IMG/VR virus record: IMGVR_UViG_3300020045_002760
Location: 1 to 32,497 of that record
Reading direction: 5' to 3' (one strand)
Length of the DNA stretch: 32,497 nt
Source: a virus
Lineage: Duplodnaviria > Caudoviricetes
Under the pieces are notes generated by a model. The model was given only the letters and a program-made list of their open reading frames with translations. It did not search any database and was not told where the DNA came from. Of this stretch, positions 15,856-22,457 are shown piece by piece (the first letter of the stretch is position 1; the number at the start of each line of letters is the position of its first letter). The position numbers and the translations under genes are program-made.

Positions 15856-15927
15856 AGCGCTTTGGTGAAGTTGGTATCCCGTTAGCCTCATAAGCTAGAG
15901 TCACAGGTTCGATTCCTGTTCGCGCAA
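15856..15927 (+). tRNA. tRNA-Met(CAT)-like, degenerate
   Basis: T-arm ACAGG-TTCGATT-CCTGT, anticodon arm TTAGC-CTCATAA-GCTAG, D-loop TTGGTA. Three mismatches in the acceptor stem and no encoded CCA. Confidence 0.7.
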
Positions 15928-15958
15928 TAAAGCTTTCTTTCATAATTGGTTATTTTTT

Positions 15959-15987
15959 GCCTCTCAGTAAAATGAGGGGCTTTTTTT
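15959..15987 (+). terminator. intrinsic terminator ending the late operon
   Basis: GCCTCTCA-GTAAAA-TGAGGGGC followed by T7. Confidence 0.85.
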
Positions 15988-16557: not shown

Positions 16558-16727
16558 AACCGCCAAACGTACCATGTCCGCCACGAAATCCGCATTGTCA
16601 TGGAGCAATAGACGACCTCCCAATCGATAATCCATTCTTTATAACAATAATTATCGTCTTAATAACAATTTATGCGGGTTGGTGGCTGAGTATAAATGTT
16701 CGCCTTATGAATGAGGTAAATAATTAA
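16554..16727 (+). CDS. 57-aa Pro-rich/TM peptide with an LPID motif (not in ORF track)
   Basis: MKPPNVPCPPRNPHCHGAIDDLPIDNPFFITIIIVLITIYAGWWL...; its stop TAA is part of the TAAC at the array's left end. Confidence 0.55.
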   Translation: MKPPNVPCPPRNPHCHGAIDDLPIDNPFFITIIIVLITIYAGWWLSINVRLMNEVNN

Positions 16728-16850
16728 CGTTGAGCATTGTTGCAGTAGCGTACTGACACAAGACAATGCAACGGACAAACATTAATAAAAACAAGAATTA
16801 CTAATCATTAAATTAAGCAAAAATCTAGCTATAAGTACAATATATTGTTG
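16725..16850. repeat. cassette site S1 (degenerate stem)
   Basis: TAAC gttga gcATTGTtgcagTAGC ... GCTAtaagtACAAT atatt GTTG; left arm similar to S6. Confidence 0.7.
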
Positions 16851-16878
16851 TAGGTAGGTTTTTTAAACATCACGGAAT

Positions 16879-17109
16879 ATGAAAACATCATTAGAAAAAG
16901 CACGAGAATTATATGATAAATTCGATGAGTTACTTCCATGCGAAGGAACAACTACAGGGGATACACCAATTGAATGTGCTATTATTGTTATTGACGAAAT
17001 AGATTCTATTTATCAAAAACTAACTCCAAAAGACGATCCTTATCGTTATTTGATAGAATTAGAATACTGGCAAGATGTGAAAGAAAAATTGAAGAAAATA
17101 TGTGCGTAA
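16879..17109 (+). CDS. cassette 1: hypothetical phage protein
   Basis: KARELYDKF...CAIIVIDEI...YWQDVKE. Flanked by IRs at 16847-16861 and 17130-17144. Confidence 0.75.
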   Translation: MKTSLEKARELYDKFDELLPCEGTTTGDTPIECAIIVIDEIDSIYQKLTPKDDPYRYLIELEYWQDVKEKLKKICA

Positions 17110-17140
17110 CTTTGGCTACAAAGTTGAGCAAACTTACCTA

Positions 17141-17265
17141 CAACGTTTTGACGCTTGGTGCGGTTGGGGCTAAAAAAGCCAAATTAATAACTATAAAAAT
17201 AATCATTATGATACAAGACAATAATAAAATTCAAGACGATGCCCAATCGCTCCAAATGGCTGTTA
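17141..17265. repeat. cassette site S2
   Basis: CAAC gtttt GACGCTTGGTGCGGTTGGG ... CCCAATCGCTCCAAATGGC t GTTA. Confidence 0.8.
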
Positions 17266-17804
17266 TGCACAGTGCATTTACGCATTTGATGTTAGATATT
17301 GAAACAATGGGGAATAAGTCAAATTCTGCAATAATAAGTATTGGAGCAGTTGAATTTGATATTAATACTGGTAAAACTGGAAAGGATTTTTACAGGAACG
17401 TATCATTAAAATCGTCAATAGATTTAGGTTTAAATATCGATGCTGATACTGTTATGTGGTGGATGAATCAAAGTGATGATGCTCGTAAAAGTTTAACTAA
17501 CGAAAAAGCAATTTCAATAAATCAGGCACTTGTTGATTTTAGAGAATTTTGTAATAAAGAATATCAAATTTGGGGCAATTCCGCAAGGTTTGATTTAGGA
17601 TTAATGCAAGATGCTTATAATAAAGCAAACATCGATATTCCTTGGGATTTTAGAAAAGAAAGATGTGTTAGAACTTTGGTAAGTTTCAATCCTGAAATAA
17701 AGAAAAATTTAGACTTTAAAGGAACTGCACACAATGCTTTATCTGATTGTTATCATCAAATTGAATATTGTCGTTTAACGTGGTCATCTTTGCATTGTGC
17801 ATAA
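17208..17804 (+). CDS. cassette 2: DEDDh 3'-5' exonuclease/exoribonuclease
   Basis: HLMLDIETMG, WGNSARFDL and HNALSDC motifs. Start placed at ATG 17208 (A-rich context) rather than 17100. Confidence 0.85.
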   Translation: MIQDNNKIQDDAQSLQMAVMHSAFTHLMLDIETMGNKSNSAIISIGAVEFDINTGKTGKDFYRNVSLKSSIDLGLNIDADTVMWWMNQSDDARKSLTNEKAISINQALVDFREFCNKEYQIWGNSARFDLGLMQDAYNKANIDIPWDFRKERCVRTLVSFNPEIKKNLDFKGTAHNALSDCYHQIEYCRLTWSSLHCA

Positions 17805-17930
17805 CGTTATTCGGCTTTGTCTGGTGCCGAAAATTCAAGACAAAACATAAAAGTACACGATAATTTTTAAATTAAAAAACAATGAGTAAAGACACAAAAC
17901 CAAGTAAGGCATTAGTCAAAACCGATGTTA
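17802..17930. repeat. cassette site S3
   Basis: TAAC gttat TCGGCTTTGTCTGGTGCC ... GGCATTAGTCAAAACCGA t GTTA. Confidence 0.8.
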
Positions 17931-18325
17931 TAGGAAGCCAAGATGAAGCCGATTTTTATCCTTGGAGTTCTCAGGAAGAAAAGGATTTTGAGTATTCAAT
18001 AATGGATGAATGTTATGCCGAAGAAAGAAAGTTCGATGAAAACAACAAAAGAATATCGGATAGGATATTGAAAATACTAAAAGCTGTAAAAAGCGAAGAA
18101 TGGTATTCTGAATTAATGGAATATTCAAAAGAAGCTGAAACTCATAATCCATTTTCTATTGTTAGAAAACCTAAAGGGCAATTTCAGGAAGAAGATGAAT
18201 TTAAATTACTAGGTGGTGTATGGGTCGAGCAATCTAGTTCTTATCCTTGTGAAGATTGTTATTATGGAACAGTAACCGTTAAAATAGACGAAAAACGTTA
18301 TTTAGAAATGCCATTCGCTTGTTAG
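17882..18325 (+). CDS. cassette 3: acidic hypothetical protein
   Basis: 147-aa ORF; IRs at 17927-17941 and 18340-18354. Confidence 0.75.
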   Translation: MSKDTKPSKALVKTDVIGSQDEADFYPWSSQEEKDFEYSIMDECYAEERKFDENNKRISDRILKILKAVKSEEWYSELMEYSKEAETHNPFSIVRKPKGQFQEEDEFKLLGGVWVEQSSSYPCEDCYYGTVTVKIDEKRYLEMPFAC

Positions 18326-18350
18326 CCGATAGTTGTGTATTGGTTTCCTA

Positions 18351-18480
18351 TAACGGATTGTTGCTATAAGAGGATTTTCGGATGAGTACAAAACCAACTT
18401 TCCGCTTTGCCAAATCACCACAAATACAGACTAATAAAACGATTAATCACTATGCCTAAAATCTCTTATAGCAACTGTTA
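18351..18480. repeat. cassette site S4
   Basis: TAAC ggatt GTTGCTATAAGAGgATTTT ... AAAATCTCTTATAGCAAC t GTTA, with one bulged G. Confidence 0.85.
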
Positions 18481-18513
18481 TCAGGAGTACGATAATTTAA
18501 AACTAAATATGTT

Positions 18514-18741
18514 ATGAAAATAAAAGACACAGAATATGGATTTTCAATTTTTCCTAGTTATGGAAAAGTACAAGCTGAAATATATAGGGTTTCAGAATTT
18601 AAAGATGGATTTAAAATGAATATAAGATTACTAGACAAAGAATTTGGCTCAATGTGGAGAACTCCAAATGAAGAAGATTATAAAAAAGCTAGAGAATGGG
18701 CTGACTTACAAATGAAAGGTATCTTAGATGCAAACTCGTAG
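18514..18741 (+). CDS. cassette 4: hypothetical protein
   Basis: 75-aa ORF; IRs at 18477-18490 and 18741-18754. Confidence 0.7.
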   Translation: MKIKDTEYGFSIFPSYGKVQAEIYRVSEFKDGFKMNIRLLDKEFGSMWRTPNEEDYKKAREWADLQMKGILDANS

Positions 18742-18750
18742 TATTCCTGA

Positions 18751-18876
18751 TAACGCTTTGCCTGTATGGTAAGTGGCGTGTAAATAAGCCAAAACATTAA
18801 ATAATTACTAACATTAACAAACACAAAACTATGTTTAAATTAAGCCAAATCAAGCCATTTATTATACAGGCTGTTA
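18751..18876. repeat. cassette site S5
   Basis: TAAC gcttt GCCTGTATGGTAAGTGGC ... GCCATTTATTATACAGGC t GTTA. Confidence 0.85.
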
Positions 18877-19130
18877 GTAGCTGTTTTTCTTCTAAACCAC
18901 CAAAATTACATTGGTACGATTGCCAATTTTATTACAAGAAAAAAGGTGCTGATATGTATTGTGTAGATTTTAATTTACAAGTAGGATTTGTAAATCAAAA
19001 AGACATTTTAAACGGACGAAAAGTAAAAAAACTAACAGGGTATAGGGTTGAAGAATTTCCTAAAAAAGTTCTTGATAATGGATTATTTTATTTTAAGATA
19101 AATGCTTATTTAGGGCAGTTCTCAAAATAG
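18831..19130 (+). CDS. cassette 5: hypothetical protein
   Basis: 99-aa ORF; IRs at 18873-18887 and 19124-19138. Confidence 0.7.
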   Translation: MFKLSQIKPFIIQAVSSCFSSKPPKLHWYDCQFYYKKKGADMYCVDFNLQVGFVNQKDILNGRKVKKLTGYRVEEFPKKVLDNGLFYFKINAYLGQFSK

Positions 19131-19134
19131 CTAC

Positions 19135-19262
19135 TAACGTTGGATAATTGTAGCAGTAGCGTACTGATACAAAACTATCATTCAGTTGAAGAATGATAAA
19201 ACCAAGAAAACGCAAAACATTAAATACAAAAACCATACAGCTATTGCTACAATTATGTGTTA
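19135..19262. repeat. cassette site S6
   Basis: TAAC gttgg ATAATTGTAGCAGTAGC ... GCTATTGCTACAATTAT gt GTTA. Confidence 0.85.
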
Positions 19263-19819
19263 CTAGCTGTTTTTATTCACTTATTATGGATTTAGGAACT
19301 TTTATCAGAGAAAACAAAAAAAGCGGTGGATTATCAATTGAAATATCTAACCAAGTAGAAAAATTATGGAATGAATATAAACTTGAAAAAACGGAAGAAA
19401 ATTGCAGTATTATTTCTGCTGATTTTGGAAGATTGGGAAGTTTGAATATTAAAGAAATAGCATCATTTGAAGAAGAAAAAGTTTTCAAATATGAAAGTGG
19501 TTCTTATGATTATATTTCTACAAAAACAAAATCAACTACAAATATATTGTGGACTGACTATCAAGAAATCGAGCCATATAATAGACAAAGTGGATTATAC
19601 GCAAATGGTTCTTCTTTTGAAAGTTTAGGAAAACCAATTTTAGAAAAAGAAGATTATCGTGAATTTGTTGCAAAACACGTTTATAATGGAAATGTAGCTT
19701 TTGCGGTTTGGGGATATGGATTTAATAATTTTTATGAATCAATAACATTTGGAATTTGCTTAAAAACTGATAAAGTAGATGAGTTTATTTCAAAACTAAG
19801 AGTTCTTATTGGCAAATAG
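19193..19819 (+). CDS. cassette 6: hypothetical protein (alternative start 19286)
   Basis: ORF flanked by IRs at 19259-19272 and 19814-19827. Confidence 0.7.
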   Translation: MIKPRKRKTLNTKTIQLLLQLCVTSCFYSLIMDLGTFIRENKKSGGLSIEISNQVEKLWNEYKLEKTEENCSIISADFGRLGSLNIKEIASFEEEKVFKYESGSYDYISTKTKSTTNILWTDYQEIEPYNRQSGLYANGSSFESLGKPILEKEDYREFVAKHVYNGNVAFAVWGYGFNNFYESITFGICLKTDKVDEFISKLRVLIGK

Positions 19820-19823
19820 CTAG

Positions 19824-19949
19824 TAACGTTATCTCGCTTGGCGAGGTTGGGAAAAGAAAGCCCTAATAATTAAATTAAAAAACCAAAAATGAAAGTACAA
19901 GACCAACATCAAATTAAGCCTGAAACCCAATCTTGCCAAACGAGTGTTA
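19824..19949. repeat. cassette site S7
   Basis: TAAC gttat CTCGCTTGGCGAGGTTGGG ... CCCAATCTTGCCAAACGAG t GTTA. Confidence 0.85.
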
Positions 19950-20701
19950 TGGTTAGTGCGGTTTTTCAAGGAGATTGCCTTGAAATAATGAAGACTATAC
20001 CTGACGAAAGCGTTGATATGATACTTGCAGACTTACCTTATGGAACAACTGCTTGTAAATGGGATACAGTTATTGATTTAGAAAAATTGTGGACAGAATA
20101 TAATCGAATTATAAAAGGGAATGGTGCAATTGTTCTTTTTTGCCAACAACCATTTACAAGCGCATTGATATCTAGTAATTATAAAATGTTTAAATATTTG
20201 TGGTATTGGAGAAAATCACGCCCATCTGGTTTTGTAAATGCTAAATTAAAACCTTTAAAAGATATTGAAGAAATTGCAGTTTTTTCAAAAGGAACAACCG
20301 CAAATAAATCAGTAAATAATATGCCATATTATCCACAAGGTTTGATTGAAGTAAATAAAAAGTGGAAACGCCCCAAGACTTATGGAACTGGAAAAGGTGT
20401 AAACCCAACTCGAAAAAGTCACGAATTAGAAAGAGTAATACAATTTGAAGGATATCCAAGACAGGTTTTAGATTATAATAAACATAACGGAAATCAATTT
20501 CACGAGACGGAAAAACCTGTTGAATTAATTGAGTATTTGATTAAAACTTATTCAACTGAAAACCAAATTATTCTTGATAATACAGCAGGAAGCGGAACTA
20601 CAGGAATTGCCTGTATAAATACAAATAGAAAGTACATTTTGATTGAAAAAGAAGAAAAGTATTTTGATGTCATAAACGAAAGAATTGCTAATCATACGTA
20701 A
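19889..20701 (+). CDS. cassette 7: N6-adenine/N4-cytosine DNA methyltransferase (beta class)
   Basis: GDCLE, DLPYG (motif IV), HETEKP, and ILDNTAGSGTT (motif I). IRs at 19946-19959 and 20731-20744. Confidence 0.9.
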   Translation: MKVQDQHQIKPETQSCQTSVMVSAVFQGDCLEIMKTIPDESVDMILADLPYGTTACKWDTVIDLEKLWTEYNRIIKGNGAIVLFCQQPFTSALISSNYKMFKYLWYWRKSRPSGFVNAKLKPLKDIEEIAVFSKGTTANKSVNNMPYYPQGLIEVNKKWKRPKTYGTGKGVNPTRKSHELERVIQFEGYPRQVLDYNKHNGNQFHETEKPVELIEYLIKTYSTENQIILDNTAGSGTTGIACINTNRKYILIEKEEKYFDVINERIANHT

Positions 20702-20768
20702 GGAAAATGTTCTTATGAAAACGTATCGTAGCATTAACCATAACTAACCGCTACAAGTAAACTAAATT

Positions 20769-21755: not shown

Positions 21756-22457
21756 ATGAAAACAGAAATTACAATTATGCCGGTTAACGACATCATGGAT
21801 ATGTCAAAAATGTTTGTAGAAAGCGGAATGTTTACCGATGCTAAAAGTGTAGCACAAGCATTCGTTAAAATACAAGCAGGTCAGGAAATAGGATTAGCCC
21901 CTTTTGCTGCAATGTCAGGAATAAACGTTATTATGGGTAAACCAACATTTGGCGCTGGAGTTATAGCATCAAGCGTAAAAGGAAGCCAAAAATACGATTT
22001 CAAAGTAAAAGAAATGAATGATAAAGTTTGTTCTATAGATTTCTTTGAGGGGAAAGAATTATTAGGGAACTCTACTTTTACAGCAGAAGACGCAAAAAAA
22101 CAGTCTACTAAGAATATGGATAAGTTTCCTAAAAATATGCTTTATGCTCGAGCAATGTCAAACGGTCAAAAATGGTATTGTCCCGATGTGTTTCAAATGG
22201 CGGTATATGTCCCTGAGGAAATGAATGCGATAGAGGCTGAGCAAACACAAGACATTACCCACGTAGAAGTAATTGAGCCCGCGCCAATACAATCGCCAAT
22301 TCCAACTCTTAACGACAAGCAGTTAAAAAAGCTGTTGGAATCAGATATTGAAACAATAGAAAAGTATTTAAATCTAGTAGAAGAAGGAAAAGTAACAATG
22401 ACACAAGTACAAGTATTGAATTTAGAGGATAAATTAACAGAACTTAGAAATAAATAA
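21756..22457 (+). CDS. single-strand annealing protein (RecT/Redbeta-like)
   Basis: AFVKIQAGQEIGL.P...INVIMGKP and KFPKNMLYARAMS...CPDV motifs. Confidence 0.7.
   Translation: MKTEITIMPVNDIMDMSKMFVESGMFTDAKSVAQAFVKIQAGQEIGLAPFAAMSGINVIMGKPTFGAGVIASSVKGSQKYDFKVKEMNDKVCSIDFFEGKELLGNSTFTAEDAKKQSTKNMDKFPKNMLYARAMSNGQKWYCPDVFQMAVYVPEEMNAIEAEQTQDITHVEVIEPAPIQSPIPTLNDKQLKKLLESDIETIEKYLNLVEEGKVTMTQVQVLNLEDKLTELRNK

Follow-up and report, generated by a model that had tools for sequence, protein, structure and literature searches.

Integron-like gene cassettes of inverted orientation in a flavobacterial-type phage, with likely translation starts in their hairpin loops

The virus record IMGVR_UViG_3300020045_002760, which was analysed over its entire length of 32,497 nucleotides (here called the window), stems from a flavobacterial-type phage and contains an array of seven consecutive gene cassettes, each headed by a long hairpin. 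The design of these cassettes is real and widespread, and it is a variant of integron cassettes. Judged from the sequences, it is quite probable that they are mobile integron-like cassettes of Bacteroidota which likely recombine as folded single-stranded DNA at AAC, are flipped in strand, and obtain a start codon and a leader from the hairpin loop in units 2, 3, 5 and probably 7. About four of the seven cassettes are thus likely to begin translation in the hairpin: the A-rich loop would supply the start codon and a leader of 14–22 residues, which is probably a tolerated by-product and not a functional domain. A preliminary description of this DNA had proposed loop starts for units 2, 3, 5, 6 and 7, with one fixed frame through the core GTT; the loop-start idea is largely right, but the fixed frame, a protein motif derived from it and the start of unit 6 are not.

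Architecture of the sites

A scan of the window for 14-nt inverted repeats of the form GTT...AAC with at most one mismatch gave eight matches; seven bound consecutive units and carry their mismatch always at position 11 (G left, T right), and the eighth is an inner arm of site 4. Each unit has at its bounds a 15-bp inverted repeat with this one fixed mismatch and at its head an attC-like hairpin of about 120 nt; the 117–122 nt from AAC to the next GTT consist of G, a 4-nt bulge, an arm, the A-rich loop, the complementary arm and T. Two-sided changes were found in 13 of 16 arm pairs of a 15-sequence alignment (in the consensus fold, one of the 15 input sequences was a few bases out of register). 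At all seven array sites the coding strand folds better than its complement, with G.T pairs. Complementarity of the outer arms extends to position 15 and then falls to background; the outer arms of one cassette can pair only when the cassette is circular.

For comparison, phage loci were gathered with three hairpin patterns, one protein and two GenBank phages, and bacterial loci with one pattern; one phage pattern set and the bacterial set comprise the matches listed, with full flanks for 80 loci each. Sites 1 and 6 of the window have a common head family; the pattern of this family was rejected, 26 of its 27 loci being unrelated repeat-rich coding sequence without a site. A strand-specific site finder gave 202 matches in 60 loci, versus one in the same loci after shuffling. 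Of the 202 viral loci 94 contained units, and of the 141 host loci 61 did (some loci overlap); together they gave 215 distinct viral and 172 distinct host units. The mismatch at position 11, which was allowed and not required, occurred in all 215 viral and in 170 of the 172 host units. The 200 phage units of inverted orientation (see below) fell into 191 clusters when grouped at 85% identity, and into 138 protein families.

Start codons and reading frames

The ATGs at 17208, 17882, 18831, 19193 and 19889, on which the preliminary description was based, stand 54, 45, 42, 66 and 57 nt before GTT, in frame and free of stops, and the five peptides which it quoted across the core GTT, with Val in each, were reproduced. 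With the highest per-frame host rate (70/250) as the null expectation, five of seven such units give p = 0.02 and four of seven p = 0.10; the window on its own is weak evidence for loop starts, and the pooled data carry the case. Start contexts were scored with a matrix from 42 predicted starts of the window outside the array, which recovers A at −3 and at −11 to −13; A at −3 matches initiation in F. johnsoniae, according to the accessible part of PMC6847099. A loop ATG of strong context, open to 45 nt past GTT, was present in 85 of 198 phage versus 6 of 248 host hairpins. In 67 of 80 cassettes the loop ATG had a higher score than the internal ATG that comes first, and 61 of the 73 strong loop ATGs reaching GTT were fused to the main open reading frame (ORF), the other 12 not. 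One head family serves 11 unrelated cargo families. When 31 of the 48 cassettes without an early internal ATG were scanned against Pfam, 19 matched; in nine of these the domain starts before any ATG, GTG or TTG, and in five, with methyltransferase and phosphoadenosine phosphosulfate (PAPS)-reductase domains, by 18–75 residues.

A loop start was counted where an ATG of the loop precedes GTT by more than 10 nt and its frame is open into the main ORF; 83 of the 191 cassettes have one. Loop starts do not follow a general rule, because 108 of 191 cassettes are without one and because short hairpins have them in 1 of 57 cases, versus 82 of 134 long hairpins. The notion of the site as a translation-start module can be retained insofar as the loop appears to act like a start for many cassettes, but neither as a general rule nor with a fixed frame. 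A single frame is refuted by the 83 loop starts themselves, of which 47 are in the Val frame, 33 in a Leu frame and 3 in the third; Val and Leu frames do not differ in use (p = 0.15), and the five Val frames out of five in the window have a probability of 0.058 at the pooled rate. The sequences show two usable frames, Val from GTT and Leu from TTR, and the third is mostly closed by TAR, with a stop within the first 18 nt in 110 of 191 cassettes. The 43 head families with loop starts are mostly Val in 26 cases and mostly Leu in 17, one methyltransferase family uses all three frames and also a start of its own, and cassettes without a loop start have uniform frames (37/42/29; p = 0.30). The refuting observation named for the original claim, a random GTT frame, holds only by half: the frame is not fixed, and it is not random either. 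The proposed leader motif x-V-[MIST]-x-[SC] does not hold at the protein level: its V is encoded by GTT, its S or C is due to a G that occupies arm position 11 in 93% of viral units, and as both derive from conserved bases of the recombination arm, the motif reflects a DNA constraint. Leaders in the Leu frame read L-x-A/V-V.

All cassettes lie on the plus strand. Cassette 2 (17145–17805; head 17145–17261, GTT 17262) codes for an Rv2179c-like 3'-5' exonuclease. Its likely start is predicted at the loop ATG 17208 in the Val frame, which scores 3.9, versus −4.5 for the ATG at 17265; its stop is the TAA of TAAC. Cassette 3 (17806–18354; head to 17926, GTT 17927) codes for a 147-aa protein with a weak match to phrog_11125, for which ATG 17882 in the Val frame is the likely predicted start. 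Its conserved core begins at about residue 23, and the first internal start codon is residue 41. Of 24 homologues found, 21 were aligned; in eight there is a leader with V-x-x-S at its end, and about 11 have no leader and start close to the conserved core, so that leaderless versions, for which the preliminary description had suggested an alignment, do exist among the predicted proteins. For the 99-aa protein of cassette 5 (18755–19138; head to 18872, GTT 18873), ATG 18831 in the Val frame likewise appears the likely start, with conservation from about residue 19 and the first internal start codon at residue 42; among 21 homologues, 18 keep the junction under different leaders, two are without it and one uses another frame. 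The N-termini of the homologues of units 3 and 5 are automated calls. The start scores of units 2, 3 and 5 are in the top 2–4% of non-start ATGs.

Cassette 7 (19828–20744; head to 19945, GTT 19946) codes for an N6/N4 DNA methyltransferase, and a start at the loop ATG 19889 is considered moderately likely, 19949 being the alternative candidate; near-identical heads stand ahead of other cargo in L018, L024, L034, L035 and L040. As had been described, the recognisable domains follow the site: the Pfam exonuclease domain of unit 2 begins at residue 25 and the N6_N4_Mtase domain at residue 42. In cassette 6 (19139–19827; head to 19258, GTT 19259) the gene is most likely 19286–19819 (177 aa). The loop ATG 19193 has an open frame that matches the gene's, but it is weak and relatives have not retained it; as a start it is doubtful because the five closest homologues (88–92% identical), all of 177 aa, start at the downstream Met (19286), and because its A is C in the contigs of all four sequencing runs compared. 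Unit 6 would probably start downstream of GTT, at Met 19286.

Cassette 4 (18355–18754; head to 18476, GTT 18477) contains a 75-aa ORF (18514–18741) with a strong ATG of its own (score 4.7, loop ATG −0.8). The loop ATG at 18452 opens a 21-aa peptide (18452–18517) whose TGA overlaps ATG 18514, as had been reported. Cassette 1 (16729–17144; head to 16846, outer arm from GTT 16847, closing arm ending in AAC) has an ORF of 76 aa (16879–17109) with its own ATG; the left arm of site 1 is able to pair with its own loop (16736–16783), as an alternative to the full hairpin. The stop codons of units 2, 5 and 6 end 1, 8 and 8 nt ahead of the unit boundary, and that of unit 4 ends 13 nt ahead of it, in agreement with the earlier placement at the right repeat. 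Three features had been passed over: the in-frame loop ATG of unit 1 (16766), which meets a stop after 12 aa, the crossing of GTT by the unit 4 peptide in a non-Val frame, and the ATGs directly after GTT in units 2 and 7 (17265, 19949).

Movement of the cassettes, host arrays and phage setting

Twenty homologous viral pairs were compared, of which 12 were informative, having different upstream neighbours. The preceding arm was at least 75% identical in 8 of these 12 pairs (random-pair background 2.8%) and the following arm in 3 of 12. In L011 and L013 the cassette is 100% shared and divergence begins exactly at TAAC|G at both ends. Since the flanks of identical cassettes change over at TAAC|G, a hairpin moves together with the gene that it precedes. 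Assigning it to the upstream gene, as is classical, was rejected on the flank comparison of same-cargo pairs. The site does not, as had been suggested, lend its start to whichever cassette inserts next, since hairpin and gene normally move together. The exonuclease cassette recurs in L001 with the same preceding head, including compensatory changes, and with different neighbours on both sides; a single near-identical host duplicate follows the phage rule. In these comparisons, of which 12 viral pairs bear on the crossover side, the flank switches fall on the AAC side. Contig pieces from four studies start or stop within a few bases of the AAC-side switch points, and the heads have far deeper sequencing coverage than the cargo.

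IntI cuts AAC of the attC bottom strand (PMC5027507, accessible part), and published attC bottom strands, that of aadA7 included, read AAC-G...T-GTT (PMC9892861, supplement as far as accessible). The phage coding strand has the same polarity; for these reasons it is the equivalent of the bottom strand. Cleavage at AA|C would be carried out by an array-linked tyrosine recombinase, supplied by the host or by related phages.

Among the matches listed, the site-7 pattern was found mainly in Flavobacterium genomes. In one of these (G001) an array of more than 30 sites ends at a co-oriented tyrosine recombinase; three others (G003, G004, G005) resemble it, the enzyme of G004 being apparently broken or partial. 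This array lies at G001:C1:2380900-2415700 (L353, L354), and its recombinase has 584 aa, with an N-terminal extension of about 300 aa that belongs to no Pfam family; a single-strand-binding domain was considered there as a candidate and was without Pfam support. Two cassettes of the G001 array are each present twice. Two host array-linked enzymes scored 211–218 bits on TIGR02249 (cut-off 265) and skipped positions 180–240 of the profile; one aligned host enzyme has 19 residues where IntI4 has 62, about 43 fewer. The host recombinase thus has no counterpart of an insertion that has been called essential for integrons to function, and these arrays would probably escape the usual integron searches.

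Host array ends have AAC-TNGTATATA in common, adjoin the recombinase and appear attI-like. T at +8 is the main shared feature of phage array ends (39 of 42, that of the window included) and was found in 20 of 22 host ends. In the window the array ends without a hairpin at 20745–20760, with T at +8, and this end may be attI-like. At L042:6718-6790, P12002L_attC2 is the reverse complement of an array end, a position read here as attI-like; recombination of P12002L_attC2 with IntI1 was reported in the accessible part of Qi et al. 2023 (PMC9892861).

Among units of at least 150 nt, host genes were canonical in 138 cases, inverted in 6 and unclear in 28; phage genes were inverted in 200, canonical in 1 and unclear in 13. 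The pattern used for the host loci alone gave 55 inverted, no canonical and 5 unclear phage units. Since phage genes lie opposite to the host strand, the hairpin stands in front of its own gene. A recombinase was present in 8 of 198 earlier phage loci (L004–L201), and the site in 7 of 57 viral loci with relatives of the recombinase. In L362, L364, L367 and L370 a phage recombinase of 260–275 aa follows right after the array on the coding strand, flipped versus the host layout. The cultured relative snusmum6-1 has about ten units of this kind. Host arrays in L218 and L214 contain many cassettes of about 290–350 nt without a clear ORF, possibly empty chassis, and a transposable-phage-like contig (L361) lies beside a host-type canonical array that is interrupted by a transposase-like gene. 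An exonuclease cassette with degenerate cores and a surviving leader (…ISPLASGS…) at L002:4900-5650 suggests the decay of sites into ordinary genes.

Heads at least 85% shared with unrelated cargo occurred in 333 pairs, in 33 of which the outer arm was shared as well. Both outer arms were shared in 111 pairs, with the stop at the same offset in 45 and at a different one in 66; in 28 of the 45 same-stop pairs, identity ends 0–3 nt before the stop. At the 5' end, a break immediately behind the shared ATG was seen in just 7 of 66 own-start pairs, and in the 16 loop-start pairs identity ends 14–21 nt after G. Precise trimming is common, but it is not the rule. In P0089 the head and arm of unit 6 stand on an unrelated protein. 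Replacement of cargo between the two outer arms may be the main way in which head and cargo are paired, with occasional exchange of heads at the GTT side, and selection would keep in-frame joins. As a tentative extension, somewhat short of an even chance, Bacteroidota phages could be using a non-IntI integron as a factory of cassettes: a chassis that can be used repeatedly, consisting of a head with a ready start codon and two matched outer arms, would receive unrelated ORFs, often cut back exactly to the start or stop codon, or deprived of their own start and joined in frame, and a second crossover, on the GTT side, would reassort heads. If this is true, ongoing birth of gene cassettes is in view, and a recombination site encodes protein N-termini.

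The window is the whole virus record and contains genes of a Bacteroidota-type phage for the tail, for lysis and for replication, with the array between a tRNA region and recombination genes. The contig appears incomplete, because no terminase, portal or capsid gene was recognised among the listed ORFs, most ORFs of the structural region not having been scanned. Upstream of the array are a tRNA and then the sole terminator-like hairpin of the scanned region (15856–15980), and an arm-like sequence ending in AAC (16714–16728), for which no matching left arm was found, precedes the first hairpin. A RecT-like single-strand annealing protein is encoded at 21756–22457, 1 kb past the array, and is a candidate for swapping cargo. 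The structural region contains an Rfam DUF805b motif (1959–1990; 44.9 bits). Scans for sigma-70 promoters and terminators, and for Bacteroidota promoter-like octamers, gave chance level only; Rfam covariance models gave no array match at the gathering score and two chance-level matches (E 2.8 and 4.5).

Alternative explanations and relation to known systems

Three other explanations were weighed. If the hairpin acted mainly as RNA, controlling translation by sequestering the start, and cassettes were shuffled by RecT-like annealing via short homology with no site-specific recombinase, the better folding of the coding strand with its G.T pairs and the RecT-like gene nearby would be understandable, and tblastn found no recombinase in the window. 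However, hosts keep the same fold on the non-coding strand, with an attI-like end and a tyrosine recombinase next to it, the change of flanks falls on a single trinucleotide, and the outer arms pair only in a circular cassette, which makes this explanation unlikely. Slightly less probable still is that the loop ATGs are gene-calling artefacts of A-rich, stop-poor loops, the real starts being downstream of GTT. This is probably true for unit 6 and possible for units 2 and 7, and an open Val-frame ATG is present in 70 of 250 host loops, there on the non-coding strand. It does not agree with the five methyltransferase and PAPS-reductase domains that begin ahead of the first possible start, nor with the conservation of units 3 and 5 well ahead of their first internal start, and strong contexts are 18-fold commoner in phage than in host. 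That every site is a universal initiation module with one Val frame, expressing any cassette inserted behind it, is very improbable. Five of seven window units are in the Val frame, 38 of 43 head families are unmixed in frame and some pairs have the same cargo under different heads; on the other side stand the Leu frame in 33 of 83 loop starts and 17 of 43 head families, both frames in 10 of 59 loci, the 108 cassettes without a loop start, and a head which usually moves with its own gene.

Several points weigh against mobile, strand-flipped cassettes with loop starts, the explanation preferred here. Three to four viral pairs have the same cargo under a changed head, only 12 viral pairs bear on the crossover side, and four host pairs are mixed (preceding arm 1/4, following arm 3/4; host background 15%). 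The start matrix was trained on the window's own starts and partly rewards A-richness, the loops having 50% A in viruses and 38% in hosts; the loop scores of units 6 (−2.0) and 7 (−1.2) are weak, and ribosomes might make poor use of an ATG placed where a strong mRNA hairpin has its base. Families are unevenly sampled because three hairpin patterns were used to find loci, and the site finder recovered five of the seven window sites and missed two. In the accessible part of PMC9892861, P12002L_attC1 is the only site whose junctions with IntI1 are unverified.

Under the integron-like interpretation, the same chassis with unrelated genes offers a large natural set of joins, and the host genus is tractable. 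Between host and phage nearly all cassettes are flipped in strand, which shows that an entire pool can have its orientation reset, and the loop, regarded as a variable spacer, may be recruited to start translation. The cargo of methyltransferases and nucleases suggests a system for the rapid swapping of counter-defence genes. To our knowledge, the question of how integron cassettes are made is still open. The literature, with subscription journals and bioRxiv supplements mostly uncovered, contained no description of the host system, the strand flip or the loop starts, and the accessible parts of a paper on MITEs (miniature inverted-repeat transposable elements) and of one on metallo-beta-lactamases do not describe the element. 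MITEs are dispersed and non-coding, with terminal inverted repeats and a target-site duplication; the present units stand in tandem, encode genes and have hairpins between them, no search for target duplications having been made.

The closest known systems are compared here with the accessible parts of their descriptions. As in integron attC sites (Nivina et al. 2016, PMC5027507), the cores AAC and GTT belong to an imperfect palindrome which folds when single-stranded, with an unpaired central spacer and a variable terminal loop; as in integrons and CALINs (integrase-less attC clusters), cassette ends are complementary and two or more sites form an array, and the canonical gene direction of host arrays agrees with integrons, as would the putative crossover at the bottom-strand AAC (PMC5027507). 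The canonical R and L boxes of 7–8 bp and the extrahelical bases opposite the AAC arm are absent; instead of a 7-bp box there is a 15-bp outer arm with a fixed G.T mismatch, mismatches replace the extrahelical bases, and the AAC arm has a 4-nt bulge. No IntI integrase with the IntI-specific insertion, as in complete integrons, was found, the linked host recombinase lacking about 43 residues of the IntI4 insertion; in host arrays most genes lie on the top strand and have attC on their 3' side, and phage genes are on the bottom strand, many of them with a likely loop start (compare PMC5027507). The phage arrays resemble the CALINs of virulent phages (Qi et al. 2023, PMC9892861), which carry methyltransferases, and P12002L_attC1, located 5' of the methyltransferase gene gp35, has the same architecture. 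The accessible part of that paper notes only "divergent directions" in P12002L, and contains nothing on an inversion that is systematic, on starts in the loop, on the long outer arm or on the host system in Flavobacterium. With ORF-11 and ORF-17 in attI1 and short ORFs in attC (PMC8876359), the present sites would share translation signals of a recombination site that help signal-less cassettes, and unit 4 resembles coupling of the ORF-11/ORF-17 type. There, however, the short ORF stops and ribosomes restart, whereas here the loop is fused in frame; and the signal resides in attI or on the preceding cassette's top strand (PMC8876359), versus the loop of the cassette's own site in the arrays described here.

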